From assembly GCA_963848965.1 (NCBI GenBank), contig CAWKFG010000004.1, positions 64,001 through 128,000 of the forward strand: 64,000 nt of DNA. Reading direction: 5' to 3'. Both the position numbers and the translations under genes were made by a program. The DNA is from an uncultured bacterium. GTDB lineage: Bacteria > Babelota > Babeliae > Babelales > Babelaceae. The notes beneath the pieces were generated by a model, which worked only from the letters and a program-made list of their open reading frames with translations, searched no databases and had not been told where the DNA came from. Of this stretch, positions 14,009 through 35,784 are shown piece by piece; the stretch's first letter is position 1, and each line of letters opens with the position of its first letter.

Positions 14009-14446
14009 AGTATAGATAAGCCTATTAAGCAAAATAACTGTTTTAGAGTATACAAGACTATTCTCTTTACAAAAGATTGCACAGAATTCCTCTTTGATTA
14101 TCTCTAAGAGCTCAATAAGCCCCGCTTTATCTTCTTGCTTTTGTGTTTGAATAATACTACGTAAACTTCTATATTCTCTCCACAACTCTTCTACCATTTT
14201 GACAAGCTCTGTACAAATTTCCTTTCTTTGCTCATCTGTTGTATGAATAGCTCGTACTAAATCAAGATTTGTCCATACATCCATGCAACGCTTTAAAAAG
14301 CTTTCATATGAAGGCGCTTTACGAGCAAAAAAACCCCAAAATCTATACACACATTCATAATCTTTTTCACAGAAAGTAGAAAGCGCTATTGAAAGCATTC
14401 CACAGAGCCATACTACCGAACTTTTTTTTATCATAATCACTTTCAT
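13979..14446 (-). CDS. Hypothetical helical protein with signal peptide
   Basis: 155-aa ORF with hydrophobic N-terminus. Confidence 0.55.
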   Translation of the reverse strand: MKVIMIKKSSVVWLCGMLSIALSTFCEKDYECVYRFWGFFARKAPSYESFLKRCMDVWTNLDLVRAIHTTDEQRKEICTELVKMVEELWREYRSLRSIIQTQKQEDKAGLIELLEIIKEEFCAIFCKENSLVYSKTVILLNRLIYTLKAPGNIKT

Positions 14447-14686
14447 TATAAGCGCATTTTTAAGAGAGCATTGCTATTATAATATTTGCAAATTGAATTA
14501 GCAAAAGTCAATAATTTGAATTATTAATTTAAGAATGAATTATAAAAATAAAAAACTATGTACATCTCTCTGTTCCTCTACCGACCAGAGCTTAGTAACA
14601 AAAATAGCGCCTTATTGACTAACATAAAATTATATATTACAATATGTTTAAATTTAATATAACAAATTTAAATTAAGGCTTTCAAT

Positions 14687-15673
14687 ATGAATAAATCATT
14701 GTTGGTAAGTATCTTCTCAATCATACTTATAATCAATGCCTATGGCATGGAACAGAACTCTTCTTCTTATACAAGCGATGAATCAACTGAATTTTTAGAT
14801 GCAGCAAAAGACGGATCTCTAGAAAGAATTAAAGCTCTTTTAGAAGTAGGCGCTGATATTAATGCGCAAGATCAATGGGGCCGTACAGCATTATACTATG
14901 CTACAAAATATGGACATAAAGAAGTAGTAAAGATATTGCTTAATCGTAACGCTGATAGCAATATACAAGATCAAAGTGGCGTTTCTTGCTTAATGTGTGC
15001 AGCAGAGCGTAATTGCAAAGAGTTAGCAGCTTTACTAATAGCACGTGGAGCTCACATTAATGCTCACGATAAGTATCGTAACAGCGTCTTAAGCTATGCA
15101 ACAAAAAATAATCATTCTGGTATGGCTCAATTTCTAAATCTTTGCAACACTGAGCACGTACAAGCATATCTTAAAGATCCTCAAGCATACGCTGATGTTA
15201 ATCAGTCTGAGAGCACTTTCACAACAAAGCTTATGCTTGCATGCATCTTTGGGCATAGTGAGATTATAGCTTCATATAGAGACTGTACTTCAGAATATCT
15301 TAATAGCAAAGATTCTAACGGATACACCGCATTTGAATATGCTCTCCTTTATAATCTTGATAGCGCAGCTGCACTTCTTACTATTTTTGATACAAAAATT
15401 GAATGGTTTGACGCATCAGACACAAAAGTACAAGATTTAAACTTAAAAGACGATGCCTTGAGCAATGCATTTATATCAATAGCAGCTTACTTAACTGGCG
15501 TAAAACTAGACAAAAGAAAAGCGTTATTCAACTACGCAGTAGAGAATAATCATCAACCTCTCGTGCAAGCACTTTTAAATACTGGCCATCTTAAGCATTT
15601 ACCACACGATCTTTTTCGAGAGCTTTTATTTTTTACAACTTCTTGTAAGAGTAATAACAGGACCTATTTTTAA
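14687..15673 (+). CDS. Secreted ankyrin-repeat protein
   Basis: GRTALYYA, GVSCLMCAA, GYTAFEYA repeats; signal peptide; C-terminal LKHLPHDLFRELL. Confidence 0.9.
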   Translation: MNKSLLVSIFSIILIINAYGMEQNSSSYTSDESTEFLDAAKDGSLERIKALLEVGADINAQDQWGRTALYYATKYGHKEVVKILLNRNADSNIQDQSGVSCLMCAAERNCKELAALLIARGAHINAHDKYRNSVLSYATKNNHSGMAQFLNLCNTEHVQAYLKDPQAYADVNQSESTFTTKLMLACIFGHSEIIASYRDCTSEYLNSKDSNGYTAFEYALLYNLDSAAALLTIFDTKIEWFDASDTKVQDLNLKDDALSNAFISIAAYLTGVKLDKRKALFNYAVENNHQPLVQALLNTGHLKHLPHDLFRELLFFTTSCKSNNRTYF

Positions 15674-18597: not shown

Positions 18598-18904
18598 ATA
18601 ACGGATGGGGCAAATTTGTTTTTATGCTTGGCTATAAATTGGCAGAGAGAGGCAAACAGCTTATAAAGATAGACAAATGGTTTCCTTCATCAAAGATGTG
18701 TTCTTCATGCAGTAGTATAAAAGAACGTCTAGAACTATCAGAAAGATGGTATGATTGTCAGCATTGTGGGTACTCTCAAGAGAGAGATATCAATGCTGCT
18801 AGAAATATTAGAACCGTGGGGATCACGGGGATAGCTTGATAAATATCCTGAGGCTGCTCAGGAGTTCCCAAGAAGCCCCCACCTCTTAGGTGGAGGTAGT
18901 TCAC
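18598..18904 (+). mobile_element. tnpB: IS200/IS605-family remnant: TnpB C-terminus plus right end
   Basis: GWGKFVFMLGYK, PSSKMCSSC...CQHCG...RDINAARNI zinc finger/RuvC-III; right end GAAGCCCCCACCTCTTAGGTGGAGGTAGTTCAC. Confidence 0.9.
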
Positions 18905-18977: not shown

Positions 18978-19082
18978 TTATCTATTAAACCAAGCTCCGG
19001 GCCTATTAGTCTCATAATATGCTACCCAAGGGCCACCTAGGGTCAACTTACTAGCATTGCCAAGCATACGGATAGTTTTCAT
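18978..19082 (-). CDS. Lasso peptide precursor A1 (34 aa)
   Basis: Hand translation MKTIRMLGNASKLTL|GGPWVAYYETNRPGAWFNR; AAGGAG RBS; Thr-2, Gly1, Glu9. Confidence 0.9.
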   Translation of the reverse strand: MKTIRMLGNASKLTLGGPWVAYYETNRPGAWFNR

Positions 19083-19115: not shown

Positions 19116-19144
19116 CTTGAGGAATACCACATGCATTCCTCAAG
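19116..19144. other. Stem-loop between precursors A2 and A1
   Basis: CTTGAGGAAT-9 nt-ATTCCTCAAG, perfect 10-bp stem with no clear U-tract. Confidence 0.6.
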
Positions 19145-19304: not shown

Positions 19305-19436
19305 CTAATGCCCACACCAATGAGGCCTTAGTCCAAGCTCATTTCTGTTACCATTGCAATACCCTAGAGTAAGTAATGATGCTTTCCCAATCTCAACGGC
19401 TCTACTTTCTTTTTTGTTTAGTTTTATCTTATGCAT
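19305..19436 (-). CDS. Lasso peptide precursor A2 (43 aa, two Cys in core)
   Basis: MHKIKLNKKESRAVEIGKASLLTL|GYCNGNRNELGLRPHWCGH; AAGGA RBS; Thr-2, Gly1, Glu9. Confidence 0.9.
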   Translation of the reverse strand: MHKIKLNKKESRAVEIGKASLLTLGYCNGNRNELGLRPHWCGH

Positions 19437-19454
19437 TGCAGTTCCTTTCATTAA

Positions 19455-20383
19455 GAGCCTATCTCTAAAATGGAAAAAAGGTTGAAAATATAATAAAATC
19501 TCCTTCTAAAGAATCGCGATCAACGATCAAGAAGGAGATTTACACATGTGTCATACAAAAAATTGTTATGAAGTATGCATAAACAAGAAGTTTCTTATAA
19601 CTCCAAATTTATGGAAAGATATAGAAAAAATAATACCAAAAATAAGCGAAAAATCAAAGCGGGGAAGACCCTCAATGGATATGAAAAGAGCAATAAATGG
19701 TATCTATTATCTGTTAAGGACAGGTATACAATGGAATGCATTGCCTAGATGCTTTGGATCGTACTCTGCTGTCCATAAACTGTTTCAAAAATTAAGGTCT
19801 GTCGAGTTCTTTAAATATTTATGGTATGCTGAACTTGACCAATATGATAAAATTCACGGACTTAGTCTAGAAACTCAAGCTGCTGATTGTGTTTATATTA
19901 AAGCGCCCTTGGGTTCAGAGAAAACAGGCAAGAGCCCAGTAGATAGGAGAAAATTAGGAACAAAACGAAGCATATTAACTGATAAAAACGGTATAGTTAT
20001 CGGTTGTGCGTTAGGTAGCGCTAATCAGCACGATTCTCAGCTATTTTTGGATACCTTATTATCCATTCCTAAGCATATATCCATGCCTTATAGCAAAATT
20101 ATAAGTTTAGATGCAGCTTATGATTCAGCGCAAATAAGAGCCTACTTGCTGCATTACAGCTATGTACCTAAAATAATGAAAAATAAAAGAAAAGCTAAAA
20201 ATAAAGTTTATGGTGTACCAGAAGGTTATCAACGCTGGTTCATTGAACCTACGCATTCATGGCTCAATCGGTTTAGGCGCTTGTTTGTTCGTTATGAAAA
20301 ATACGCTTTAAACTATATGGCTATGGTTTATTTTGCCGTAGCTATCATTATTTTTAACAAATTATGAATTTACGGATAGGCTC
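19455..20383 (+). mobile_element. IS5-family element (IS1031-like), 929 bp
   Basis: Imperfect TIRs GAGCCTATCTCTAAA / TTTACGGATAGGCTC; 3-bp TAA duplication at 19452-19454 and 20384-20386. Confidence 0.9.
19546..20367 (+). CDS. IS5-family DDE transposase
   Basis: RGRP...GIYYLLRTGIQWNALP, AADC, GTKRSILTD, LDAAYDS, RWFIEPTHSWLNRFRRLFVRYEK. Confidence 0.95.
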   Translation: MCHTKNCYEVCINKKFLITPNLWKDIEKIIPKISEKSKRGRPSMDMKRAINGIYYLLRTGIQWNALPRCFGSYSAVHKLFQKLRSVEFFKYLWYAELDQYDKIHGLSLETQAADCVYIKAPLGSEKTGKSPVDRRKLGTKRSILTDKNGIVIGCALGSANQHDSQLFLDTLLSIPKHISMPYSKIISLDAAYDSAQIRAYLLHYSYVPKIMKNKRKAKNKVYGVPEGYQRWFIEPTHSWLNRFRRLFVRYEKYALNYMAMVYFAVAIIIFNKL

Positions 20384-20495: not shown

Positions 20496-20657
20496 TCACA
20501 TCCATTTATTTACTTTTACCGGTAGCTCTAAACCATTAAAGCCTCTACCCATAGTAAGATTTACCGCTGAACCAATCTGCATAACAGAAGTTTGTAGGAA
20601 AAAAATCTTCTTATTATTAGCCTTATCTTTAATTACAGTACTATTTGTATAATGCAT
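20496..20657 (-). CDS. Lasso peptide precursor A3 (53 aa)
   Basis: MHYTNSTVIKDKANNKKIFFLQTSVMQIGSAVNLTM|GRGFNGLELPVKVNKWM; AAGGA RBS; Thr-2, Gly1, Glu8. Confidence 0.88.
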   Translation of the reverse strand: MHYTNSTVIKDKANNKKIFFLQTSVMQIGSAVNLTMGRGFNGLELPVKVNKWM

Positions 20658-21128
20658 TTTTTCCTTCGATAGTAATTATAAATTGTGATCCTAAAAATAT
20701 ACGCAATAAAAATACTAACAAGATAAACCTTATTGTCAAATAGGCATCAAAATAGCGATTGTTACACTCTCTTAAAAAAGAACTAAAACAACAAAAAGCA
20801 TATGCTCTATTTAGAATTTTTTTATTATTATAATTTATTACTGCAACTAATAACTTTGGTATAATTTTCGATAGTAAACTATACATTTATCCTTACTCTA
20901 TCTCTAAAATAGCTTTATAAAAGCTGTTATAGTTGCGATAACAGCAAAAAGTCCTGTTATCATGAAGCTTAATATACTGAACACTGTTAATAATTATGTA
21001 TATGCCACTAGCATCTTACGTAGATATTTGACTTTTTAGAGCTATAAATCATACTGGAAAAAGTAATTTCTATACTCTGCAAAAATATTATAATGACAGG
21101 CTTCATTACTAAATCGAAAGGTATAATT

Positions 21129-21293
21129 GTGATTACTCCTCAAAATTACAAGCAAAAAAGTGCTCGCGTAAATACAGTGGCTATCAAAGAATTGGGTAGT
21201 GCTTGTTTTCTTACTCTTGGTTGGCAAACTAAGAATGCTAAAGAATACATGCGATCATCTTCTTATTTGAAAAACTCCAAGAGTAAGCTTTGA
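21129..21293 (+). CDS. Lasso peptide precursor A4 (GTG start; tail probably chimeric)
   Basis: (M)ITPQNYKQKSARVNTVAIKELGSACFLTL|GWQTKNAKEYMRSSSYLKNSKSKL; AAGG upstream of GTG; Glu9; lies within track ORF 21093..21293. Confidence 0.75.
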   Translation: MITPQNYKQKSARVNTVAIKELGSACFLTLGWQTKNAKEYMRSSSYLKNSKSKL

Positions 21294-21716: not shown

Positions 21717-21883
21717 ATGTTTATAAGACAAAATATTCAATAGAAAGATTGTATCAAAGTAAATACCGTTAAGATAACCAGAGCAATAGTTAAGGAGCCC
21801 GGCAATAGCTCAGCCCTTACGCTTGGAATACTAAAAATGCTAAAGAATATATGAGAACTTCGTGTATTTGGGTGAAAAGCTAA
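21717..21883 (+). pseudogene. Lasso precursor pseudogene (paralog of A4)
   Basis: MFIRQNIQ*KDCIKVNTVKITRAIVKEPGNSSALTL|G[fs]TKNAKEYMRTSCIWVKS*. Confidence 0.8.
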
Positions 21884-21990: not shown

Positions 21991-24900
21991 ATGAAAAATG
22001 TATGTTCTTTTGTTTTAACCGTATGTCTTTTGTCTTTTCAACTGAGTAAGCCAATGGAAAAGGAGACAGCCAGAGAACAAGATATACAAGAAGACAAAGA
22101 AAACATTATATATTTAGAAAGCATTGAAGGAGAACTTGTTCCTTTATCGAGCTCATATCTTCCTCCTGCTTTTGCTTTCACAGTATCTGCTTATCCAGCC
22201 TCTCTAGTTCCTATAAAACAACCATTAGATACTTTAACTTTAGCATGTGATATCCTGCAAGCAAAAAATAAAGATATCTCTCGCCTTATCAATGATTATA
22301 TTGCAGGAGGTTACCTAGAAAGATTCAAACCTGCTCCTTTAAAGAAACCAATTAGAGATGTATTACAAAAGGTTCGTACACTCATAGAAACTCTTCAATT
22401 TCTAAAAATAAGCCAAGAATGCTTGGCCCGTACCTTAAAATACTGCCTACATAATGAACATGTACAGAAAGCTATAACGAGTAAGCTCTTTGTTTATTTA
22501 GAAAGCAAAGAAGGTACCTTGGTTTCTTTTCCGCTTCAATTTCTTCCTCCAGATTTCACTCGAAGATTACCTCAGATAAACCTCGATTTTATAGACAATG
22601 ATATCGTCATCGATTGTAATGACTACCCTACTCGCACTTTAGAGCTTGCACGCGAAATTTTGATACACTACATAGGACTTATCTCTACTACTTACAAAGA
22701 AGCTCATCAACAAGCACTATTAAACAAAGTTGAAGACTATTTGAAGACAGACTCTTCTAATGGAATCATACAAAAAGCGCAAAATCTTTTGAAATTAGTA
22801 AGGTTTCTTAGAGTAAGCCAAGACTGCTTTAACGCTCTTTTACAAAAATGTGCAGCAATAATTAAATGCGATCAAAAAGAACTTTTTTATTCTTGCGATG
22901 CTTTTCATAAAGAGATAGCAGAAGAGAATCTCAAGTCGTGTATACGACCATTAGAAGAGCAAAGCAGCTGGCATCCTTTATCCCTTCACTCTCCTCAAAA
23001 ACAGAGTCTCTCCTTTTCAGTAAAGAAGCTTGAAGATCTACTTTATATAGCTCCTCAGAAAAGAAGAGAACTTGCATTTACTATAGCACTAAAGTATGAA
23101 GATAGAAATATTCATTTGCCTGTTCAGCACCTTATTGATCACAAATCATGGCAAGCTTTAGATGTACTCTGTGGACCTAAATCAAATCCTGAATCATATT
23201 TTGCACATGCTATTGACCGTACATCAACAGAAATAGGAAAAGCGCTCTTTTATTCAAAGCTTCTACAGCCTCTTGATGCTATCCAAGAGCTCAAGAAAAG
23301 GCAATCCATTGTTCAAGAGCTTGCTGGCAACAAAGAGATCTTTGATAAGCTTGATGGGTTATTCAAAGATTTCTTTAGTGAGCTTAAAGGCAAAAATGAA
23401 CAAATGGAAGCAAAAAAATATGAGAATAATATATTAGCCTTCTTTACAGAAAACGATCCCTTTAAAGAATTACTCAAGCTTGATATCACCAATCTCAAGG
23501 GAGCCGCAAAATGGATAAACTCTAACGAGCTCATGGTAACGCTAAAAAGAGGTAAAGATATTATTCCAGATATCATTATCAATATAACAACAAAACAGAT
23601 AAAAAATATTATTCCACAACAGATTAAACAGCTCTTTGACGCGTTTATGCCTGCACTTGCTTCTGAGGCAGGCTCCTGGGCAGCTTCTCAAGCTTGGAAC
23701 TCATTATCTACAAAATTTTTTCCTGACCCTGCTCATCTATCACCACGCTTACTCCAATGGGCGGCTTCTGCTGTAAGCAAAGTACCAAAGGCACATATAC
23801 AGCAAACCATGATGCTTCTTGTTGCAAAGTTTATCTGCTCATTAACATGCTCTAGCGACGAAGATGATTTTGTTAAAGGAATGGTAGAGATGAACTTCTG
23901 TCTTCAGACAAGGCTTATATTACTTGCAAAATATATTACTCTCATGAAAAATGTCTATAATATAGTAAGCACATCACCTAAACTTAAAGAGTATCTACCG
24001 TTTCTAGAAGCCCTCGATCTTGGGCAGGAGCATCATCAAGATATTCTCGCTCATCTCTGGTATTGGTGTAATGAGCTTACTCATCCTGCATCGTTTGAAC
24101 AGTTTATCAATAAGCTCTGTACTGCTACTTTTGATGAAAAAGATGACTCTTGGGCAAAATATCATTTCGGTCGAATAATAGCAACGTATTGCCTTGTTGA
24201 AGTTCATAAAGAACGGCTTTTTGAGGCAGTTATGGCACTATCTGAGCTTGATTCATATCTTTCAGTTGCACGATTGTATAATGAATCGCAGGATAAACCA
24301 AATAAGTATAGCTTTGTCAATTATGATACGTCAGAAACACCCATTATTGATCTTAAAAACTTTTGGAATCCTTGTGTTGGATATAATGCAGTAGCTAATA
24401 CCCTAACTATGGGTACTGATAACCATCCAAAAGACATTATCATTACAGGCCCAAACACGGGTGGCAAATCAACACTCATGAGAGCTCTTATCTTCACCAT
24501 TCTTATGGCACAATCAGTAGGAATAGCTCCTGCTCAACCAGGTTCACATATTACGCTATTTTCAAATATACGAGCGTATCTTAACATCACTGATGATGCT
24601 TCACAAGATGCGTCCTTATTCAAAGCAAGTGCTCAACGAGCCCGAGAGCTTTTAGATGCTGCATTAAAAACAAGAGGACTTTCTCTTACACTCTTTGATG
24701 AAATATATAATGGAACTGATCCTAAGTTAGGTGAATCATTAGCATATGCTACTCTTAAATTTCTTAACGATAGCGCTCGCTTTTCTCACAACATGTGTAT
24801 AACTACAACTCACTTTCCCTGTGTTCAAAAGCTACGCAGAGAGCATACAGGAACTGCATTAGGTACTAATTTTGGATATTTTAGAGTATTTGATATAGAA

Positions 24901-25497
24901 GATCCTAACACCCTCTTTAAAATTAAACCTGGTATTTGTACTAAATCAAATGCTTTTAAAGTAGCAGAGGATAGCTTCAAACTGAGTGAAGATAATAACT
25001 TATACTCAAAGATTCTTGAAGATGCAAAAGAATATTATGGACAGAATTTTGAAGAACAAAAGGGCATACTTGCAGATCCTCATTACTTGGATTTATTGAG
25101 AAGGTCTCCTACTGCATTACTTGAAATGATCCAATTAATAAAAAGCAGCCCTAATCGATGTAAAGAATACCAAGATCTCCTTTTAAGAATGGCGTACCTT
25201 GATAGTTTTATAGCACTTATTGAGCATAAGAAAAATATCTTAGCAGAGAATAATATCACTCTTGCTACATTACTTAACCTTACTAATTCTCAAGGTAGAA
25301 CAGTTCTTCATAACGGAGCACTTGATCTTATTGAAGATGAAGCTCTTATAACAAAACTCATAAACTATGGAGCAAATCCACAAGTGACAGATAACTATGG
25401 AAGAAAACCATTACACTATACTCAAAAGAATACCCTTATAGAAGAGCTGCTCAATCGCTATGAAAGACCGGCCCGCTCAAAGTCAATAAAATTATAA
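21991..25497 (+). CDS. Secreted MutS-domain-V ATPase protein with C-terminal ankyrin repeat
   Basis: Signal peptide; IIITGPNTGGKST, LFDEIYNGT, ITTTHF; GRTVLHNG/GANPQVTDNYGRKPLHY; no mismatch-binding GDFYE motif. Confidence 0.85.
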   Translation: MKNVCSFVLTVCLLSFQLSKPMEKETAREQDIQEDKENIIYLESIEGELVPLSSSYLPPAFAFTVSAYPASLVPIKQPLDTLTLACDILQAKNKDISRLINDYIAGGYLERFKPAPLKKPIRDVLQKVRTLIETLQFLKISQECLARTLKYCLHNEHVQKAITSKLFVYLESKEGTLVSFPLQFLPPDFTRRLPQINLDFIDNDIVIDCNDYPTRTLELAREILIHYIGLISTTYKEAHQQALLNKVEDYLKTDSSNGIIQKAQNLLKLVRFLRVSQDCFNALLQKCAAIIKCDQKELFYSCDAFHKEIAEENLKSCIRPLEEQSSWHPLSLHSPQKQSLSFSVKKLEDLLYIAPQKRRELAFTIALKYEDRNIHLPVQHLIDHKSWQALDVLCGPKSNPESYFAHAIDRTSTEIGKALFYSKLLQPLDAIQELKKRQSIVQELAGNKEIFDKLDGLFKDFFSELKGKNEQMEAKKYENNILAFFTENDPFKELLKLDITNLKGAAKWINSNELMVTLKRGKDIIPDIIINITTKQIKNIIPQQIKQLFDAFMPALASEAGSWAASQAWNSLSTKFFPDPAHLSPRLLQWAASAVSKVPKAHIQQTMMLLVAKFICSLTCSSDEDDFVKGMVEMNFCLQTRLILLAKYITLMKNVYNIVSTSPKLKEYLPFLEALDLGQEHHQDILAHLWYWCNELTHPASFEQFINKLCTATFDEKDDSWAKYHFGRIIATYCLVEVHKERLFEAVMALSELDSYLSVARLYNESQDKPNKYSFVNYDTSETPIIDLKNFWNPCVGYNAVANTLTMGTDNHPKDIIITGPNTGGKSTLMRALIFTILMAQSVGIAPAQPGSHITLFSNIRAYLNITDDASQDASLFKASAQRARELLDAALKTRGLSLTLFDEIYNGTDPKLGESLAYATLKFLNDSARFSHNMCITTTHFPCVQKLRREHTGTALGTNFGYFRVFDIEDPNTLFKIKPGICTKSNAFKVAEDSFKLSEDNNLYSKILEDAKEYYGQNFEEQKGILADPHYLDLLRRSPTALLEMIQLIKSSPNRCKEYQDLLLRMAYLDSFIALIEHKKNILAENNITLATLLNLTNSQGRTVLHNGALDLIEDEALITKLINYGANPQVTDNYGRKPLHYTQKNTLIEELLNRYERPARSKSIKL

Positions 25498-25530
25498 CTC
25501 GATAAGAAAACAGTACGAAAGGATACTTGT

Positions 25531-26880
25531 ATGAATCATCTGTTAAAGAAGAGAAGCAAACAAGCGTTATTTTTTGTGAGCCTCTCTTTTACCTCTTTAT
25601 CATTACTGGGTATGCAAAAAGCGCCTTCACCACATGATAGAGCTAGCAATATAGAAGAAGGATCTAAAAGCAACCGAAGGAGAGCTCTCCTTTTAGGATT
25701 AAAACAGTCAAGTGTATCATCAAGTGATGGCCAAACCATTATTCTTGAGCCCTATTTACTTTCGCCGGAAGCCCTAGAGTATATTACCGACAACCGAGAG
25801 CAATTTGATGGTGAATTAAGTACTAACGTATGGAAACTTATTTTTTGGCTCTACCGTACTAGTAACGATATTGATAGCAGTTCTCCTGTTACTTTTAATG
25901 ATGACCCCTTCATTGAATACAAGGTTAAAAATCAAGATGTATTAAAGCTGATAGGGAGGCTACCACTTCTTTACCTCAAAGATTCAGTTTTAGAGACATT
26001 CATAAAAGCTTATGTTGCTTTTAGTAAGGGAACCATAGATGCCAAAGCTCTCTTACATTATCATGATACTCTTTATACTAGTGAGCCCAGCTCTCGACAA
26101 AGAGATCTTTATCAAAAGCTGTGCCTAACCTTGCTTGATAAGTGTTACTATTTACGCTATAAAAAGCATCTTCCTTTTGCTCAAGAGCTTTTAGGAACTG
26201 TATCAATTCAAGAATTATTAGAGCATGGGAGAATTACGTTTCCTCAAGCATCGTTTCATCAACTTAGAAGTACTCTCCACAATGAGGAAGGCAGCTCATT
26301 TTTACCAGAAAACCCAACACTCAAGCTTCGAGATAGTTCCTTGTCAAGTCTTAATGGATGGCAAACTATTTTGAACAATATACAAGCAGATAGTATCTAT
26401 GCAATTGATTTAAGTAATAACTGCTTACAAACGCTTGACCCTCTTTCTGAGCTTACAAACTTTAAAGCGCTTACCGTACTTAGGTTAGATCATAATAAAT
26501 TAAAAACTCTCCCCTTAGAATTACTTAAAGATTGTACCGCTCTTATGGTACTTGATCTTTCGCATAACCCATTAAATGAATTTTCTCCAGAAGACCTTGC
26601 TGTACTTATAGCTCCATGTTCACATCTTCAAGAGCTCTCTATTGCTCATACAGATATGAAGGGAAAGCTTACTGCAGAGCACTTTGCGCGTAACCCTTCT
26701 TTAAAAAAAATAGATTACAAGAATTGTTCACAGTTGTGTGTTTCAGAATCTGTAGATAAACTAAATGCTATGCGTGAGGAATTTACTTTAGATAACAGAT
26801 TTGTCGTTATAGGCGGCTTTTTAGCTTTTATAGTAATAGCTATTCTTGTAGGAAAACATATTATGCATCGTTCTGCATAA
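25531..26880 (+). CDS. Leucine-rich repeat protein with signal peptide and C-terminal TM helix
   Basis: IDLSNNCL, LRLDHNKL, LDLSHNPL, LSIAHTDM repeats. Confidence 0.88.
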   Translation: MNHLLKKRSKQALFFVSLSFTSLSLLGMQKAPSPHDRASNIEEGSKSNRRRALLLGLKQSSVSSSDGQTIILEPYLLSPEALEYITDNREQFDGELSTNVWKLIFWLYRTSNDIDSSSPVTFNDDPFIEYKVKNQDVLKLIGRLPLLYLKDSVLETFIKAYVAFSKGTIDAKALLHYHDTLYTSEPSSRQRDLYQKLCLTLLDKCYYLRYKKHLPFAQELLGTVSIQELLEHGRITFPQASFHQLRSTLHNEEGSSFLPENPTLKLRDSSLSSLNGWQTILNNIQADSIYAIDLSNNCLQTLDPLSELTNFKALTVLRLDHNKLKTLPLELLKDCTALMVLDLSHNPLNEFSPEDLAVLIAPCSHLQELSIAHTDMKGKLTAEHFARNPSLKKIDYKNCSQLCVSESVDKLNAMREEFTLDNRFVVIGGFLAFIVIAILVGKHIMHRSA

Positions 26881-27799: not shown

Positions 27800-27824
27800 A
27801 ACCCCAGCTTTATCGGCTGGGGTT
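27800..27824. terminator. Terminator hairpin downstream of precursor A5
   Basis: AACCCCAGC-7 nt-GCTGGGGTT with an A-run on the left (U-tract on the minus strand). Confidence 0.75.
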
Positions 27825-27844: not shown

Positions 27845-27994
27845 TTATTTTTTAATTGGCCACTTATTACCTTTAACAGGTAATTCTAAACCATTTCCTT
27901 TAATACCCATAGTAAGAGTCACTGCTGAGCCAACTGAAACAACTGCGCTCTGTAGTTTTGAAGCTATTTTATTATGTGTTTTTTTATGTAACAT
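27845..27994 (-). CDS. Lasso peptide precursor A5 (49 aa)
   Basis: MLHKKTHNKIASKLQSAVVSVGSAVTLTM|GIKGNGLELPVKGNKWPIKK; AAGGA RBS; Glu8. Confidence 0.9.
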   Translation of the reverse strand: MLHKKTHNKIASKLQSAVVSVGSAVTLTMGIKGNGLELPVKGNKWPIKK

Positions 27995-28197: not shown

Positions 28198-28335
28198 TTA
28201 TTCTACCCATGTTGGTCTAAAGAGCTCAGATTTTTTATTTGAGAAAACTCCGCGAGTAAGCTTTGATGCAAGACCTATCTCACGAAGAGCTATTTTTTCG
28301 CTAGTTTTCTTAATAGTATTAAAAGCTTTTTGCAT
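28198..28335 (-). CDS. Lasso peptide precursor A6 (45 aa)
   Basis: MQKAFNTIKKTSEKIALREIGLASKLTR|GVFSNKKSELFRPTWVE; Thr-2, Gly1, Glu9. Confidence 0.88.
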   Translation of the reverse strand: MQKAFNTIKKTSEKIALREIGLASKLTRGVFSNKKSELFRPTWVE

Positions 28336-28679: not shown

Positions 28680-29429
28680 ATGTTTTTTCGCTTACAATCC
28701 CCTATTTATGCAACACACTGTGATAGCGGAATTATTATTTTAGATTTAAAGCAAGATAAATACTTTAGCCTTACTGATGAGGCTGTTCACTTTCTTACTG
28801 AAATATTAAAAAGAGAATTTGTTCTTAAAGACGCTCATTATATCCCTTGTGATGAAACAGTGCCTGATGAAGAACATATATTTGATTCTTGGATACACTA
28901 TTTTTTAGAAGAAGGATTTATTGAGCCTAGCAATCAGAAAGATGTCTCTAAGCCATTAAGGACAGCCTTAGTATCAGGCGGTCTTGCAGATTACCAATGG
29001 GATACTAAAGATAAACTTTCCTCTTTTTCTCAGTCACCTAAGCTTTTAGTAATGCAATTATTTTTCCTCGTAATGCGCGTAGATTTTATTTTAAAACGCA
29101 AGGGAATACAAGGAATCTTAGATAAAATAAATGTATATAAACGCAAGCATAAGGTATACAAAGAACCAACTCAAAGTGATATAGAAGCGCTTTCTGCTGC
29201 ACTTGATGTCGCTTGCTCTCTGTACCCAAAAAAAATGTATTGCCTTGCATGGGCATCATCATTTGTCTTAATAGCTCTTAAAAAAGGGCTAAAGTGTAAT
29301 CTTGTTATTGGCGTACAATCACCTCCCTTTTATGCTCACGCATGGGCTCAAGTAGGAGAAACGGTTATTAATGATGCAACCATAGTAAAAGAACGTCTTT
29401 CAATCCTCTTAAAGGAACCATTTAGTTAA
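28680..29429 (+). CDS. Lasso peptide B protein (fused RRE/PqqD-like + transglutaminase-like leader peptidase)
   Basis: N-terminal GIIILDLKQDKYFSL; C-terminal CLAWAS...LVIGVQSPPFYAHAW...VIND with a Cys-His-Asp triad. Confidence 0.93.
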   Translation: MFFRLQSPIYATHCDSGIIILDLKQDKYFSLTDEAVHFLTEILKREFVLKDAHYIPCDETVPDEEHIFDSWIHYFLEEGFIEPSNQKDVSKPLRTALVSGGLADYQWDTKDKLSSFSQSPKLLVMQLFFLVMRVDFILKRKGIQGILDKINVYKRKHKVYKEPTQSDIEALSAALDVACSLYPKKMYCLAWASSFVLIALKKGLKCNLVIGVQSPPFYAHAWAQVGETVINDATIVKERLSILLKEPFS

Positions 29430-29438
29430 GGAATAGCT

Positions 29439-31241
29439 ATGCCTCTTATTGCCGGTGCTCTTTTAAAGCATCCTTCTACGCACCTTACTGATAAACTTAT
29501 ACATTACACAAAAAAAATACTTACAGAAGAATCGTATACTATTAATCAGCAGCCCTATGCACTCATTATAGGTGGAAAAAGAGCAGAAGAATCATCTTTA
29601 GAACAGGTTCAAGTACTTCCTCATAATGAGGGAATTATGGTTGGCAGACTCTTTGATAAAGTTACTTACAAGCCCTGCTATGCGCAAGGAGCAAGCTCTA
29701 TCGTGCATACAAAAGGAAAGTCTTTGAGCGACCGCTATTGGGGACGGTATATTCTTGCTCTTTTAGATACCTCTCATAGATCTATTACTCTTTTTAGAGA
29801 TCCACAAGGCCTTTCATCGCTCTTTATTATTGAGATACCCGAAGGAATTTTTTTTGCGTCTGAGATTTCAGTTCTGTATGATATCCTTGAGATAAAGCCA
29901 GAACTTGATTGGACCTATTTAACTTCATATGTTTCTGGTGCCCACAATATTACTTATAGAACACCTTTTCATGGCATTACAGAGCTCTTTCCAGGATATG
30001 GAGTAACCCTTTCACCTAAGGGAATCGAAACTCCATTTCTTTTTTGGGATCCTACTGAGCTTTCGTCTCAATGTAAAACTGAACAAGAATATGAAGATAA
30101 GCTCATTGCAACATTTTCTTCTTGTACACAAGCTTGGACACAAGGAGTTTCAGGTATAGGAGTTGAATTTTCCGGAGGTATTGATTCTTCATCAGTGCTT
30201 ATGATGCTCAAAAAAGTGGCATTACCAGAGCAGCGTATTGTTGGATTTAATTTTTTCCATCCTGCCGTTGCTTCATCTGATGAGCGGGAACATGCAAAGA
30301 AAGTTGCTACTGCTTGCCAAGTAGATGTTGATTATATAAATTTACAAGATTATGCATATTTAAACTTTCAAACGGTTGAAAGATTTGATAAGCCCTCCTC
30401 TTTCTTGCTCGATCTGGGATGGAATAAAGAAATGGCGCGGAGAATACAAAGCTATGGAGATCTTGAAATCATGTGTGGCCAAGGAGGCGACCATCTTTTT
30501 ATGGCACCACCTCCAGTAGAATCAATTGCCGATTATCTAATTTTACAAGGCTTTAGGGGCATCACTCCTAAAATTAAAGATATAAGCGCTTACTATCGTA
30601 TGCCATTGCTTAGTGTTTTATCAAAAAATCTTTCTTCATTTGTTCACTATAAGCGAGGAAACCTTAAGCATATAGAATTGCTCTATGAACCAACCAATTG
30701 GATGAATCAGTCATTTAAAGAAAAACTTAATAAAGACATATTCCAAGTTCCTTTTTGGCATAAGCTTAAGAATCTTCCTCCTGCTAAAGTGCAGCATATC
30801 TTTGCTCTGTATCAAGCAACTCTCTATATAGATAGAGGGCACAGAATAGCACATAAGCCAGTTATTAACCCACTTCTCTCTCAACCTCTTGTTGAGCTCG
30901 CTCTTGCAGTACCTACCTATCAACTATATGGAAATGGTTATGATAGAGTACAGTTTAGAAAAGCAATGTACCAATTTACAAAACACGATTACATATGGCG
31001 TAAAACTAAAGGCGAAACGAGCGGCATACTTATGATTGCCTTTAACCGTCAAATTAAAGAAATCACTGAATATCTCTTAGAAGGTAAGTTTGCTCAAGAA
31101 AAATTGGTAGATAAAAATCTTCTTTACAATCATATCCAAGATATAAGGCATGGAAAAAACGATAACATATGGGCTATTATTAACCTTCTTGCTGCAGAGC
31201 TTTGGCTTCATTCATGGGATACTACAACGCGTAAAGAGTAA
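29439..31241 (+). CDS. Lasso cyclase (asparagine-synthetase-like macrolactam synthetase)
   Basis: FRDPQG, SGGIDSS ATP loop, GQGGDHLF, PLLSQPLVELALAVP, WRKTKG; no N-terminal Cys; directly follows B. Confidence 0.93.
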   Translation: MPLIAGALLKHPSTHLTDKLIHYTKKILTEESYTINQQPYALIIGGKRAEESSLEQVQVLPHNEGIMVGRLFDKVTYKPCYAQGASSIVHTKGKSLSDRYWGRYILALLDTSHRSITLFRDPQGLSSLFIIEIPEGIFFASEISVLYDILEIKPELDWTYLTSYVSGAHNITYRTPFHGITELFPGYGVTLSPKGIETPFLFWDPTELSSQCKTEQEYEDKLIATFSSCTQAWTQGVSGIGVEFSGGIDSSSVLMMLKKVALPEQRIVGFNFFHPAVASSDEREHAKKVATACQVDVDYINLQDYAYLNFQTVERFDKPSSFLLDLGWNKEMARRIQSYGDLEIMCGQGGDHLFMAPPPVESIADYLILQGFRGITPKIKDISAYYRMPLLSVLSKNLSSFVHYKRGNLKHIELLYEPTNWMNQSFKEKLNKDIFQVPFWHKLKNLPPAKVQHIFALYQATLYIDRGHRIAHKPVINPLLSQPLVELALAVPTYQLYGNGYDRVQFRKAMYQFTKHDYIWRKTKGETSGILMIAFNRQIKEITEYLLEGKFAQEKLVDKNLLYNHIQDIRHGKNDNIWAIINLLAAELWLHSWDTTTRKE

Positions 31242-31334: not shown

Positions 31335-34300
31335 ATGTGGGAGAAAATGAAAATTATATATACACTTATCTTACTTTTAGGTACTGCTTTATTCAAAACA
31401 GTTGCACCAATGGAAGATATTCAAAGAGTACATACTCCTCACACGAAAAGTTTTGTATATCTCATAAGCGCAGAAAACGATACAATTGTTTTACGCTCTC
31501 AGCTCCTCTCTCCAGAAGCTTTACAAAAAAAGGATTCTTCTAATACTATCGACTGTAGATCATACCCTACAGAAGTAATAGAGCTAGCATGCAAAATTCT
31601 TGAATCGAAAGACCAAGACACCTCTCAGCTTATCAATAACTACCTTGTAGCAGGATACTTAAAAAAATTAAAACAAAGTATCTTAAAACAGCCAACAATA
31701 AACCTTCTACAAAAGGTTCATAATCTTTTAGATATCTTACGATCCTTAAAAGCAAGTCAAAAATGTTTGAAAACTACTTTACGATTTTGCTTGAATAACG
31801 AGTATGTTCAAAAGGCTATAACAAACAAACCTTTTGTATACTTAGAAAGTACTGAAGGAAAACTACTGCCTCTTCCTTTTCAATTCCTTCCTCAAGATTT
31901 CATTCAAAGACTTTGGCATTCAAACCTAGATTTTATTGATAATGATATCATTATCGATTGCAGCGCCTACTCGTTGCATAATCTAGAGCTTGCATGCGAG
32001 ATATTAGTTTATCAAACAAGCCCACACTCTCTTAAGAAAGTTGAAGAATATCTCAAGGGAAATACGATTGGAGAGTCACTACAAAAAGCTCGTGATCTTT
32101 TAAAAGTTATAAGGTTTTTTGGAATAAGCAAAGATACTTTTGATGTTCTCTTACAAGCATGCGCGAAGACAACTAACTGTGAACCTAATGAGCTTTTTTA
32201 CTCCCGAGAAGATCTTTATAAAGAGGCTACAGAGGAAAATTTAAAGTCATTATCCTTAAGCTCTTCTCCTCAAGCTACAGAAGAAAACAGCACTTGGATA
32301 CGTAATGAGCTTAATACTCAGCTCAATCTTTCACCACTTGCTCGGCGCAAGATAGCCTTTACTATGGCATTACAGCACGAAAATCAAGATCCTACAACAA
32401 GCCTTTCTTATATTATTGATCAAAAGTCATGGCAAGATCTAGAACTACTGTGCGGACCAAAGTCAAATCCACATTTCTGCTTTGCCAGCGCCGTTGATCG
32501 TACATCAACAGAGATAGGCAAAGCACTCTTGTATACTAGGCTTTTACAACCGCTTACTACTATTCAAGAGCTTAAAAAAAGACAATCTATTGTTCAAGAA
32601 CTACTTAAGCCATCGATATTTCAAGAACTGGATGCCCTTTTTGCACAGTTTTTTAAAGAGCCAAAACATGAAAATAATGTTCTATCTTTTCTCAACGGTG
32701 CTGACTTTTTCAAAAATGAATTAAGCTATAATGAAATACAAATTCCTTTCTTTGCTAAATTCTCTCAGTGGTTTAATACCAATGAGATTACAGGCTTTTG
32801 GAGCGCTTCTGATAAACTTATTTATAAAATTAGTAATACACTCCTACAGGGGAAGACAAAAACATATGAATTTTGCCTCAATGGTTTAGAGTATTTCTCG
32901 ATAATCAAAAATAATAGGCCTCGTATAGATGAAACTATAGAATTCATTAAGTGTTGCTTTAAGTTCTTTATACCCAAGCTCGTTAACGCAACTTCTGAGA
33001 AGTCCTCTAAGCAGGCCTCTGATATGGTTTCTAAATATATAGTAAATGAAAAAATATCCTTAGGGATACCATTTACTAAGTACAAGCTACCTCAAGAGCC
33101 TTCATTCACATCTCCTATTTTTGGTGCTACACTCGGCTGGGCTTATAGCTCTTTTTTAGGAGCGCCGCACATGCTCACGGAAAGCATAATAACAACCTCA
33201 GTAATGCACGTTGTAACACACTTGCTCTATAGTGCGATGAGTGATAATAATTACAGTAGAGCAATTCAAGGATTAGCAGAGGCAAGCATATGCCTCCAGG
33301 AAAAGCTTATACTACTTTCAAAATATGTTAAATTTATCAAAGAGCTTCATACTTTTCTGAAAAATAAGTCACCAAAGCTTTTAGAGCTTATTCCTTCTTT
33401 ACAAGCTTTAGATCTAGGACAAGAAACTCCTCGTCAAAATGTATTCTCTTATTTCTGGCATTTTCCTACAGATATTACCAAGCAGTACATCTTTACAGAC
33501 GCAACGTCTTTCGAGCAGTTCATAAGTAAGCTCTGTAGTGCAACTTTTGATGAGCAAGGTAATATTTTTTCAAGGTATCATATTGGTCGTGTTATCGCAG
33601 TTTATCGCCTTGTAGATCTTCATAAAGAAAGACTTTCTGCCACTGCCACAGCACTTGCAGAACTTGACGCATATCTTTCAGTTGCACGATTGTATAATGA
33701 ATCGCAAGATAAACCAAATAAATATAGCTTTGTTAATTATGATACGTCAGAAACACCTGTTATTGATCTTAAAAACTTTTGGAATCCTTGTGTTGGATAT
33801 GATGCAGTAGCTAATACCTTAACTATGGGTATTGATAATCATCCAAAAGACCTTATAATTACAGGGCCAAATACCGGTGGTAAATCAACACTTATGAGGG
33901 CTCTTGTTTCTGCTATTTTAATGGGCCAATCATTAGGCATAGTTCCTGCACAAGAAGGATCACACATAACATTATTCTCAAATATACGCGCATATCTTAA
34001 TATAACTGATGATTCGTCGCTAGGTCTTTCTTTATTCTGGGCAAGTGCTAGGCGAGCTAAAGAGCTTTTAGAGGCAGCACAAAGACCAACAGGCCATTCA
34101 CTTACACTTTTTGATGAGATATATAATGGAACTGCTCCGAAAATAGGCGAATCTTTAGCCTATGGCACCCTTCTATTTATGACCGATAGCAATCATTGTC
34201 CTCGAAATATATGTATAACTACGACTCACTATCCTTTTGTACAACAATTACGAGAAGAGATAGATACCAAATGTGCTTATTATAGAATAAGCGATAAAGA

Positions 34301-34916
34301 AGATTCTGAAAATCGCTATAAACTTTTACCAGGTATTTATACAGAGTCCAACGGCCTTACTATTGCTCAAGAAGTAGGACTTAACGATGAAATTAGTAGA
34401 AACTCAAAACACTACTGTGAGCAAAAATACAAAAATAGTAATCTTAATTGCTTATTTAAGCCAGAAGCTCTCTTAAATACCTGTAAGGAAGAAGGGTTCA
34501 TATTCCTTATGAAACTTATAAAACAGAGCGAAATGAGAGCTTGGCTTCACGAGTTACTTTTAACAGCACCTTATGGCTATCATTTAGTAGAGCTAGCAAT
34601 AAAGCATGCAGTTAATCTCAAGTCATTCCTCAATCTTACAGATGATAAAGGCAGAACAGTACTTCATCGCGCAGCTATAAGAGATGCTAAAAACGGTGCA
34701 CTTATAAGCTTTCTTATCAAACAGGGAGCAAGCCTATGGATGTACGATGCTAAAGGCAAAAGGCCGCGAGACTACGCTTTACCGGACACTGTTGTCTGGA
34801 AGATATTAGTAGATGCAGAAAATACTCAAGGAACATATTTTGAGCAGCTACCTCAAGCATTAAGAGATAGACTCCAGAACTACATTACATATAATAAGAG
34901 AGCTGACGCTTTGTAA
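31335..34916 (+). CDS. Secreted MutS-domain-V ATPase/ankyrin protein, paralog of 21991..25497 (start possibly 31347)
   Basis: Signal peptide MKIIYTLILLLG; GPNTGGKST, LFDEIYNGT, TTHY; GRTVLHRAA ankyrin. Confidence 0.85.
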   Translation: MWEKMKIIYTLILLLGTALFKTVAPMEDIQRVHTPHTKSFVYLISAENDTIVLRSQLLSPEALQKKDSSNTIDCRSYPTEVIELACKILESKDQDTSQLINNYLVAGYLKKLKQSILKQPTINLLQKVHNLLDILRSLKASQKCLKTTLRFCLNNEYVQKAITNKPFVYLESTEGKLLPLPFQFLPQDFIQRLWHSNLDFIDNDIIIDCSAYSLHNLELACEILVYQTSPHSLKKVEEYLKGNTIGESLQKARDLLKVIRFFGISKDTFDVLLQACAKTTNCEPNELFYSREDLYKEATEENLKSLSLSSSPQATEENSTWIRNELNTQLNLSPLARRKIAFTMALQHENQDPTTSLSYIIDQKSWQDLELLCGPKSNPHFCFASAVDRTSTEIGKALLYTRLLQPLTTIQELKKRQSIVQELLKPSIFQELDALFAQFFKEPKHENNVLSFLNGADFFKNELSYNEIQIPFFAKFSQWFNTNEITGFWSASDKLIYKISNTLLQGKTKTYEFCLNGLEYFSIIKNNRPRIDETIEFIKCCFKFFIPKLVNATSEKSSKQASDMVSKYIVNEKISLGIPFTKYKLPQEPSFTSPIFGATLGWAYSSFLGAPHMLTESIITTSVMHVVTHLLYSAMSDNNYSRAIQGLAEASICLQEKLILLSKYVKFIKELHTFLKNKSPKLLELIPSLQALDLGQETPRQNVFSYFWHFPTDITKQYIFTDATSFEQFISKLCSATFDEQGNIFSRYHIGRVIAVYRLVDLHKERLSATATALAELDAYLSVARLYNESQDKPNKYSFVNYDTSETPVIDLKNFWNPCVGYDAVANTLTMGIDNHPKDLIITGPNTGGKSTLMRALVSAILMGQSLGIVPAQEGSHITLFSNIRAYLNITDDSSLGLSLFWASARRAKELLEAAQRPTGHSLTLFDEIYNGTAPKIGESLAYGTLLFMTDSNHCPRNICITTTHYPFVQQLREEIDTKCAYYRISDKEDSENRYKLLPGIYTESNGLTIAQEVGLNDEISRNSKHYCEQKYKNSNLNCLFKPEALLNTCKEEGFIFLMKLIKQSEMRAWLHELLLTAPYGYHLVELAIKHAVNLKSFLNLTDDKGRTVLHRAAIRDAKNGALISFLIKQGASLWMYDAKGKRPRDYALPDTVVWKILVDAENTQGTYFEQLPQALRDRLQNYITYNKRADAL

Positions 34917-35119: not shown

Positions 35120-35281
35120 TCACTTCTTAATTGGCGGTATTTCATCATTTCGTGGTTTAGCACCTGATTCCATACGGAATCCAAGGGGCCAACCCAGAGT
35201 TAATAAAGAAGCATAACCTAACTCTTTTAATTGTGCTTTTTTGCTTACCGTATTTTCATTGTTGTACGTTGAAGGTGACAT
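35120..35281 (-). CDS. Lasso peptide precursor A7 (53 aa)
   Basis: MSPSTYNNENTVSKKAQLKELGYASLLTL|GWPLGFRMESGAKPRNDEIPPIKK; GGAG RBS; Glu9. Confidence 0.9.
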   Translation of the reverse strand: MSPSTYNNENTVSKKAQLKELGYASLLTLGWPLGFRMESGAKPRNDEIPPIKK

Positions 35282-35649: not shown

Positions 35650-35784
35650 ATGTTCATTACAAAAAACCATAACAACAAAAAAGCGAATGTTAAAGCGATT
35701 GGTAATGCTTCTTTAATTACCCTTGGTACTCGCGGTCACAGTGTTGAAATGGCTAAACCTATAAACTATGGTGTCAAAAGATAG
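35650..35784 (+). CDS. Lasso peptide precursor A8 (44 aa)
   Basis: MFITKNHNNKKANVKAIGNASLITL|GTRGHSVEMAKPINYGVKR; GGAG RBS; Glu8. Confidence 0.9.
   Translation: MFITKNHNNKKANVKAIGNASLITLGTRGHSVEMAKPINYGVKR

Follow-up and report, generated by a model that had tools for sequence, protein, structure and literature searches.

How could one pair of lasso-peptide maturation genes, set in a stretch of DNA without an exporter gene, serve precursor genes scattered well beyond it? The question is posed by positions 28,680 to 31,241 of a 64,000-nucleotide stretch from an uncultured Babelaceae bacterium (assembly GCA_963848965.1, contig CAWKFG010000004.1, forward-strand positions 64,001 to 128,000), which we call the window. 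The genome examined measures 1.73 Mb in 5 contigs, with a completeness of 88.7%. Two adjoining genes at this position, B and C, probably form a working lasso maturation pair for which small scattered precursors would be substrates in trans, the products being exported by an ATP-binding cassette (ABC) transporter.

28680–29429, forward strand: lasso gene B, 249 amino acids in a single frame, with an N-terminal recognition domain for peptides made by the ribosome and modified after translation (RiPPs; about residues 1–85) joined to a transglutaminase-like cysteine protease.
29439–31241, forward strand: lasso cyclase gene C, asparagine-synthetase-like, 600 amino acids, with a PP-loop SGGIDSS and a GQGGD motif; AAGGA stands before the start.

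B matches Pfam Transglut_core3 (E 5.6e-17) and the NCBIfam model lasso_biosyn_B2 (66 bits, cut-off 33). Cys188, His220 and Asp232 are shared by 18/18 aligned homologues (the window B, its paralogue in the same genome and 16 sequences from relatives), and the N-terminal residues F3, L5, A11, L21, D22, Y28 and S30 are equally invariant. These data bear out the original prediction of a fused B with an intact Cys-His-Asp triad, and the family and triad are those of a leader peptidase. An AlphaFold2 model built on this alignment (mean predicted local distance difference test score, pLDDT, 88.2; predicted template modelling score 0.85) was compared with solved structures. Residues 1–83 gave their best match to 6jx3_B (VIA-align Z 8.5, root-mean-square deviation 2.7 Å, 77 residues aligned), with Z 7.6 and 7.5 for 5v1v_A and 5v1u_A; these best matches are lasso B1 recognition domains solved with leader peptides. 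Residues 96–249 matched papain/transglutaminase-like cysteine protease domains at Z 6.1–6.3. A B-family sequence profile also matched TfuB1 (E 0.0064). Foldseek with the whole B model returned no row at E ≤ 0.001, and phmmer of B against PDB sequences gave a chance-level row only. By profile and model, the N-terminal domain has the PqqD-like winged-helix character of a RiPP recognition element, its leader binding being modelled.

The start of C lies 9 nt beyond B, and Pfam assigns the protein to Asn_synthase (E 3.1e-20). The SGGIDSS and GQGGD motifs named in the original prediction are present in the translation, and the S-G-G-D-S-S and G-G-G-D-H positions are invariant across the three cyclase paralogues of the genome. 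Residue 2 is Pro, unlike the Cys nucleophile of glutamine-dependent asparagine synthetases. C has the attributes of an AsnB-related, ATP-dependent lactam synthetase with a PP-loop SGGxDS, and its top NCBIfam models are two lasso/macrolactam cyclase models (NF033535 and NF033561); by sequence it is a distant cyclase and not an equivalog of the described subfamilies. Genome-wide, no protein but the three cyclases exceeds the Pfam cut-off for Asn_synthase; a fourth, weaker match is a tRNA thiolase-type gene.

A motif search, followed by a profile built from its matches, identified eight intact precursor genes in the window and one degenerate remnant.

35650–35784, forward strand: P1, leader of 25 residues, core GTRGHSVEMAKPINYGVKR (Glu8); GGAG 6 nt before the ATG.
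35120–35281, reverse strand: P2, leader of 29 residues, core GWPLGFRMESGAKPRNDEIPPIKK (Glu9); promoter-like site matching at 11/12 positions, 54 nt upstream.
28198–28335, reverse strand: P3, leader of 28 residues, core GVFSNKKSELFRPTWVE (Glu9); divergent from B, 344 bp apart.
19305–19451, reverse strand: P4, leader of 29 residues (24 from the second ATG), core GYCNGNRNELGLRPHWCGH (Glu9, two Cys).
18978–19082, reverse strand: P5, leader of 15 residues if the start is MKTIRM, core GGPWVAYYETNRPGAWFNR (Glu9); AGGAG 7 nt upstream.
20496–20657, reverse strand: P6, leader of 36 residues, core GRGFNGLELPVKVNKWM (Glu8); paralogue of P8.
21093–21293, forward strand: P7, leader of 42 residues, core GWQTKNAKEYMRSSSYLKNSKSKL (Glu9); no clear ribosome-binding site.
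27845–27994, reverse strand: P8, leader of 29 residues, core GIKGNGLELPVKGNKWPIKK (Glu8); same strand as P3 and downstream of it.
27800–27824, reverse strand: terminator-like hairpin of 9 pairs (6 G-C) with a T-rich tail, directly after P8.
21744–21854, forward strand: degenerate precursor remnant (E 0.29); leader end kept, early stop, no acidic ring acceptor.

All eight window leaders end in [L/I/V]-G-x-A-[S/V/C]-x-[L/I]-T-x, and Y-x-x-P occurs in 0/8 of them, as had been predicted. Leader length varies from the predicted minimum of 15 residues to 42 in P7, beyond the predicted maximum of 36; P5 could alternatively start at an ATG at 19136, giving a leader of 33 residues. Shine-Dalgarno-like sequences stand upstream of P1, P2, P5, P6 and P8. 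The whole genome holds 17 precursors, with Thr at −2 and Gly at position 1 in 17/17 and cores of 15–25 residues. Their ring acceptor is Glu8 in 10 and Glu9 in 7 (in the window, Glu8 in P1, P6 and P8 and Glu9 in P2, P3, P4, P5 and P7). The arrangement expected of a lasso precursor (Thr at −2, small residue at +1, Asp or Glu at +7 to +9, threadable tail) was found in 8/8 window and 17/17 genome sequences. When 13 precursors are aligned, Thr-2 and Gly1 do not vary and conservation ceases upstream of about −12, in agreement with the earlier view that conservation is limited to about the last 10 residues of the leader (10–12 by this alignment). Unlike the other window cores, that of P4 has two Cys, one in the ring (position 3) and one in the tail (position 17), between which a ring-to-tail disulfide could form. 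Many cores also carry Arg-Pro or Lys-Pro a few residues past the ring Glu.

Short open reading frames are generally unreliable, and on that ground alone the small frames might be chance occurrences, with B and C acting on something else. This idea is scarcely credible. The precursor profile hidden Markov model (HMM) returned 15 seed hits at E 1e-10 to 1e-7, with the next frame at 0.29. Of the 45,711 short frames of the genome, 14 contained the motif; reversing the frames gave 0, shuffling their residues 20 times gave a mean of 0.05, and long frames, amounting to 497 k residues, contained none. Moreover, the same leader end and Gly1/Glu8-9 layout recurs beside B/C in other genomes: 16 loci from 15 relatives yielded 63 leader-core units, counted by profile plus motif filter, with HMM hits failing the filter dropped. 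One match within a 548-residue frame, from the whole-genome profile search, was taken as false.

The sequence of events that we envisage starts with the N-terminal domain of B, which would take up the leader end [L/I]-G-x-[A/V]-[S/T]-x-[L/I]-T-x in the form of an extra β strand. The Cys188/His220/Asp232 protease would then cut after residue −1 and expose Gly1, and C would adenylate the side chain of Glu8 or Glu9 and close the isopeptide ring around the tail. The substrates would be supplied in trans by P3 and P8, divergent from B, by six precursor genes at 4–10 kb and by up to five elsewhere. A structure prediction of B with leader peptide had been proposed as a check. The complex of B with P1, which lies 4.4 kb from C, scored 0.73 (runs 0.73, 0.74 and 0.68) as against 0.01 for the best of three controls; the mark used for this score is reached by 116/157 solved complexes and 2/215 mismatched pairs. 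Contact agreement between runs was at least 62% and the partner pLDDT at least 53. In the prediction, B residues 26–36, the third strand of the recognition domain, contact P1 residues 13–21 (leader −13 to −5), and B residues 187–189 and 217–221, around Cys188 and His220, contact P1 residues 23–27, which span the cut. The prediction supports, short of demonstrating, leader binding by B, and it fits a recognition element whose upstream limit lies a few residues beyond the Gly at −8.

A short recognition element, as originally proposed, is further consistent with the 15-residue leader of P5 and with complete 15-residue leaders in all five units of a relative's locus (L036). The available text of PMC6784204 describes leaders of proteobacterial fused B proteins that lack YxxPxL and carry a short hydrophobic-x-x-x-Ala element and Thr-2, and that of PMC13352647 describes the caulosegnins, for which one enzyme set natively gives 8- and 9-residue rings. 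The lack of YxxP and the mixed ring sizes are therefore not the novel engineering leads for which they were first taken, because both have already been described elsewhere.

The behaviour of the wider clade bears directly on substrate breadth. B homologues (37–53% identity) were found in 16/261 Dependentiae genomes, this genome included, spread over 9 families. Among the 63 units of the relatives, 52 are Glu8, 10 Glu9 and 1 ambiguous. Mixed arrays occur in G183 (7 units, rings 9, 9, 8, 9, 8, 8, 9), G175 (8, 8, 9) and G062, and in each of these genomes the sole lasso-type Asn_synthase match is the cyclase beside the array; relatives with a single B/C pair carry up to 7–10 varied units per locus. 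The predicted tolerance of both ring sizes is supported by the single-cyclase relatives. For the window pair a broad-substrate reading is plausible and finds backing in its clade, though it is unproven because this genome has a second enzyme set. Compared by eye, the P1 core agrees with a core in G183, of another family (L038 3586–3714, forward strand), at 11/18 positions, including the stretch after the ring Glu, a likeness that suggests a peptide type conserved across the phylum.

The original prediction had named other B/C pairs elsewhere in the genome as a point on which the broad reading could fail, and this has been borne out in part. A second lasso locus, 698 kb from the window B/C on the same contig, combines a single B with two cyclases and has four precursors and an ABC transporter, in the order ABC ATPase, membrane protein, B', C', four precursors and C'' (opposite strand). 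B' is 52% identical to B, and C' and C'' are 47% and 45% identical to C. The labour might accordingly be divided: the window pair would mature P3 and P8 only, the second locus or cyclases matched to ring size would take the others, and no single broad set would exist. Three cyclases for two ring sizes fit this arrangement, as does the concentration of C'/C'' differences at residues 300–480, which would suit different substrate pockets. Nevertheless, four precursors belong to the second locus itself, all of them Glu8. At −6 the dispersed leaders have Ala (12/17 cases), as does P3 next to the window B, and all four second-locus leaders have Val; single-B/C relatives handle up to 7–10 varied units and both ring sizes; and the distant P1 could be modelled on the window B with the margin over controls given above. 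We rate such a division of labour as unlikely, though well short of negligible. The second set shares the leader logic, and its substrates may overlap with those of the window pair.

The two second-locus cyclases (L003 10707–12494, forward strand, and 13356–15113, reverse strand) are themselves mosaic. They are 65% identical overall, with residues of about 85–290 nearly identical and the N-terminus and about 300–480 diverged, a pattern that suggests gene conversion or recent partial duplication.

Beyond the window and the second locus lie five further precursors, R1 to R5. R1 and R2 are about 325–329 kb from B on the same contig, and R3, R4 and R5 are on another contig; the genome total is thus 17 precursors, against two genes for B and three for C. 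In five relatives that were searched whole, 26/26 precursor-like matches fell within B/C loci, and the scatter is therefore particular to this genome. The dispersed copies might be relics, copied by segmental duplication along with MutS-like genes (described below) and neither expressed nor processed, only the enzyme-side arrays being of consequence. Besides the enzyme-bound precursors of the five relatives, the degenerate remnant at 21744–21854, the absence of a ribosome-binding site at P7 and two traces of mobile DNA in the region are in favour of this account:

19546–20367, forward strand: IS4/IS5-family transposase between P4 and P6, context for rearrangement of the locus.
18624–18839, forward strand: short frame with a Cys-rich, zinc-ribbon-like end, resembling a TnpB fragment by eye.

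Against it, 13/13 copies outside the second locus keep an open frame, Thr-2, Gly1 and an acidic acceptor, and most are preceded by a Shine-Dalgarno-like sequence. The paralogue pairs P6/P8 and R3/R4 are 75% identical in nucleotides only over about 80 nt covering the leader end and core, and their 300-bp flanks have diverged beyond detectable identity. The simplest reading of these sequences is that the dispersed precursors have since been kept by selection, and we find a relic origin of the whole set quite improbable. Maturation of scattered, selected precursors in trans remains the account that we prefer.

Export was addressed by searching for the transporter that had been reported missing nearby. 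No ABC ATPase was found in the window by tblastn, and to that extent the report stands; the start of an ABC exporter gene nevertheless lies just 72 bases before the first base of the window, at a distance of 28.75 kb upstream from B. This gene (G000:C4:62094–63929) encodes a McjD-type protein of 611 residues with ABC_membrane and ABC_tran domains, 49% identical to the ABC protein beside B/C in G146. Its orthologues (46–48% identity) stand beside B/C in 9/16 relatives' loci, and more distant ones in 2 more. At E ≤ 1e-100, McjD-type ABC genes are present in 38/261 genomes of the phylum, namely 14/16 with B and 24/245 without. In this genome no McjD-type gene adjoins B/C, and the intervening genes are lepA, grpE and other housekeeping genes; because these separate the ABC gene from B, the old cluster has come apart. 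The second locus has an ABC-2 transporter. From these gene contents the most likely exporter would be either the McjD-type ABC protein or the ABC-2 transporter, in line with the unlinked exporter that had been suggested; the suggested release by lysis is not needed.

Other accessory genes were also sought. Five Peptidase_S9 matches exist in the genome, none of them within the window or at the second locus, and neither lasso locus has an astexin-type isopeptidase, as had been stated for the window. The accompanying statement that tailoring genes are absent is not absolute: three candidates, none of which recurs in the relatives' loci, lie 0.65 kb from P5:

15767–18322, reverse strand: two sulfotransferase genes flanking a DXD-type glycosyltransferase gene.

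These belong to multi-copy families of this genome, and they were rejected as conserved members of the cluster because no match was found in the 24 relatives' loci searched, though they could still act as tailoring enzymes here. A further glycosyltransferase-family gene lies upstream of the second lasso locus (L003 5411–7087).

Why the precursors should be scattered in this genome is a separate matter, on which the neighbouring MutS-like genes shed some light.

21991–25497, forward strand: MutS-like paralogue 1, with an N-terminal signal-like hydrophobic segment, MutS_III and MutS_V domains and a weak ankyrin match.
25531–26880, forward strand: leucine-rich repeat (LRR) protein following MutS-like paralogue 1.
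31335–34916, forward strand: MutS-like paralogue 2, directly after C, with MutS_III and MutS_V domains and a signal-like segment.
21991–23070, 25531–26430 and 31335–32414: regions with an apparent repeated module in these three genes.

Neither paralogue is a canonical MutS, which combines domains I and IV with III and V; both have III and V only, and the true MutS, with domains I to V, is encoded at 53004–55658 of the window. Nine MutS-like paralogues occur in the genome. Of its nine precursor groups, six have such a gene within 1.5 kb, as compared with a random mean of 0.27 and 0/20,000 placements reaching six. At five places (21991–25497 and 31335–34916 of the window, G000:C4:417556–419985, C1:404796–407108 and C1:446172–448142) a MutS-like gene, in some cases with ankyrin repeats, stands 181–707 bases from a precursor. 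Among the relatives, 8/16 B/C loci have a MutS-like gene within the fetched 10 kb, and G146 has the same B-C-MutS-like order as the window. A quick maximum-likelihood tree was built from 28 ATPase regions; linkage to lasso genes, placed on it as a label, required 5 changes, as against 9.2 when shuffled (1/500 shuffles as low). One clade, with 99% support in the Shimodaira-Hasegawa-like approximate likelihood ratio test, united three copies of this genome, two of them those of the window, with the copies that stand beside the lasso genes of G146 and G242, three families being represented. This grouping is suggestive only, since kin share labels and the tree is quick. MutS-like genes were rejected as a marker of lasso genomes, being present in 182/261 genomes of the phylum. 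A general pairing of MutS-like genes with precursors outside this genome was likewise rejected, 0/8 paralogues away from B/C having a nearby precursor in the fetched flanks of six B-bearing relatives. Across genomes, only the link of MutS-like genes to B/C loci (8/16) holds.

The scatter would most likely go back to old segmental duplications, in which a MutS-like gene and a precursor were jointly copied out of an ancestral B-C-MutS-like locus. A functional tie between the two can also be entertained, in which lasso precursors and signal-bearing MutS-like ATPases form a conserved pair in Dependentiae. The MutS-like protein would be an accessory factor for immunity, handling or delivery, or the lasso peptides would act with effector-like MutS-like proteins on the protist host, not on rival bacteria; the pair would have been copied to at least five places here, with two B and three C proteins acting on it in trans. 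We hold this proposal to be improbable. In the literature searched, no description of a link between MutS-like proteins and lasso peptides was found.

The same neighbourhood yielded two further observations. The pairing of a MutS-like gene with an LRR gene at 21991–26880 of the window is shared with the G242 lasso locus (L035 13349–17226), and the two LRR proteins are 29% identical over 302 residues. By eye, a repeated module of about 150 residues, located in the regions listed above, follows the signal-like segments of the MutS-like proteins (twice in each) and of the LRR protein. With Pfam, neither the first 360 residues of the MutS-like proteins nor the LRR N-terminus showed a match that rose above noise, and a protein atlas search with MutS-like paralogue 2 gave no usable match.

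As far as we searched, the B/C clade of the window appears to be confined almost entirely to Dependentiae (TM6/Babeliales). Public records with a like locus are titled Candidatus Babeliales, candidate division TM6, Candidatus Dependentiae or Candidatus Babeliaceae, with one Rhabdochlamydiaceae, and after the Dependentiae-type loci the next closest B proteins are those of Pandoraea, at 23–26% identity. Relatives were retrieved with the B alignment; a search for related loci with the cyclase alignment retrieved none. The contig labelled Rhabdochlamydiaceae (L045, 43% G+C) has the C / ABC / B layout seen in Dependentiae and one precursor, with a leader end of the Dependentiae type and a Glu8 core. 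It represents either transfer of the cluster between phyla, the Rhabdochlamydiaceae belonging to another phylum of protist-associated bacteria, or a mislabelled bin. The phylum Dependentiae is described as host-dependent or strictly intracellular in the available text of three reports (PMC4776705, PMC6561590, PMC12172432). No description of lasso peptides in Dependentiae was found in the literature covered, most subscription papers and supplements lying outside its scope.

Two relatives have precursor-like frames of another kind, located between the ABC gene and C. In G062 (L029 6887–8139, reverse strand) frames of 148, 111 and 128 residues contain 4, 3 and 3 leader-core cassettes, and in G254 (L033 14085–14701, forward strand) frames of 75 and 113 residues contain 2 and 3; the internal leaders are about 12–14 residues long. 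Such frames of 2–4 cassettes look like a multi-core layout of lasso precursors, if real, and no description of multi-core lasso precursors was found in the literature searched.

Several points weigh against one broad B/C pair acting in trans with export. C scores below the curated NCBIfam cyclase cut-offs (90.4 bits versus 525, and 85.8 versus 300), and the genome stands at 88.7% completeness. The exporter candidate is 28.75 kb off, behind housekeeping genes, and is found in 24 genomes without B as well. The high score of B with P1 may merely reflect likeness to the solved complexes 5v1v and 6jx3. The residue at −6 was rejected as a guide to the B protein used, since Ala and Val both occur within single-B arrays. 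Promoter-like sites lie 38–107 nt upstream of P1, P2, P3, P6, P7 and B, and they carry little weight, since the promoter scan as a whole was at shuffle level (67 sites versus 63.5 ± 9.5). The lack of a ribosome-binding site at P7 and the degenerate remnant mean that some copies may be decaying. Because a second B and two more cyclases share the leader logic, only a few of the 13 precursors that lie outside the second locus may be substrates of the window pair.

Research on lasso peptides has normally dealt with compact clusters of free-living bacteria, and the peptides are usually taken for weapons against close relatives. In the genome described here, of about 1.7 Mb, 17 precursor genes, three cyclases and two peptidases are devoted to them. 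The lasso chemistry itself is ordinary, and it is the host phylum and the gene layout that are unusual. What looks new is the phylum, the number and scatter of the precursors, the 15-residue leaders, the MutS-like link and the multi-cassette frames of two relatives. These features raise the questions of what lasso peptides do inside a protist, why they travel with a MutS-like gene and how short a functional leader can be; for the last of these, the natural 15-residue leaders offer a ready-made minimal recognition tag.

Four known systems are closest. TfuB1/TbiB1 (6jx3, 5v1v, 5v1u) share the winged-helix recognition fold with B, at the Z scores given above, and the leader is modelled here on the matching β-strand edge. 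They are separate B1 proteins of split B1/B2 systems, whose leaders carry YxxPxL according to the available text of PMC6784204, whereas the window B is fused in one 249-residue frame and the eight window leaders lack the motif. The fused-B clusters of Pandoraea and Burkholderia (L054–L066) contain the nearest B outside the Dependentiae-type loci and have B followed by C and an ABC exporter, but their B proteins are only 23–26% identical over the full length and their C proteins 23–24%; the precursor HMM found no match in L054, L055 and L062.

The ring of microcin J25 is Gly1-Glu8, as in the Glu8 cores here, and recognition of its leader needs only the C-terminal end. The mcjABCD cluster of Escherichia coli, as far as it is described in the available text of PMC13352647, likewise has a fused B peptidase, an asparagine-synthetase-like cyclase, Thr at −2 and a McjD-type ABC exporter, which doubles as immunity in microcin J25. 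It differs in having one precursor in a four-gene cluster, compared with 8 in the window and 17, mostly unlinked, in this genome, where the exporter orthologue is 28.75 kb from B and the window B has no phmmer match to PDB chains. In the caulosegnin cluster of Caulobacter segnis, by the same text (PMC13352647), several precursors share one enzyme set that makes 8- and 9-residue rings. Its three precursors all lie in the cluster, whereas those here are more numerous and dispersed, in a genome with two B and three C genes.

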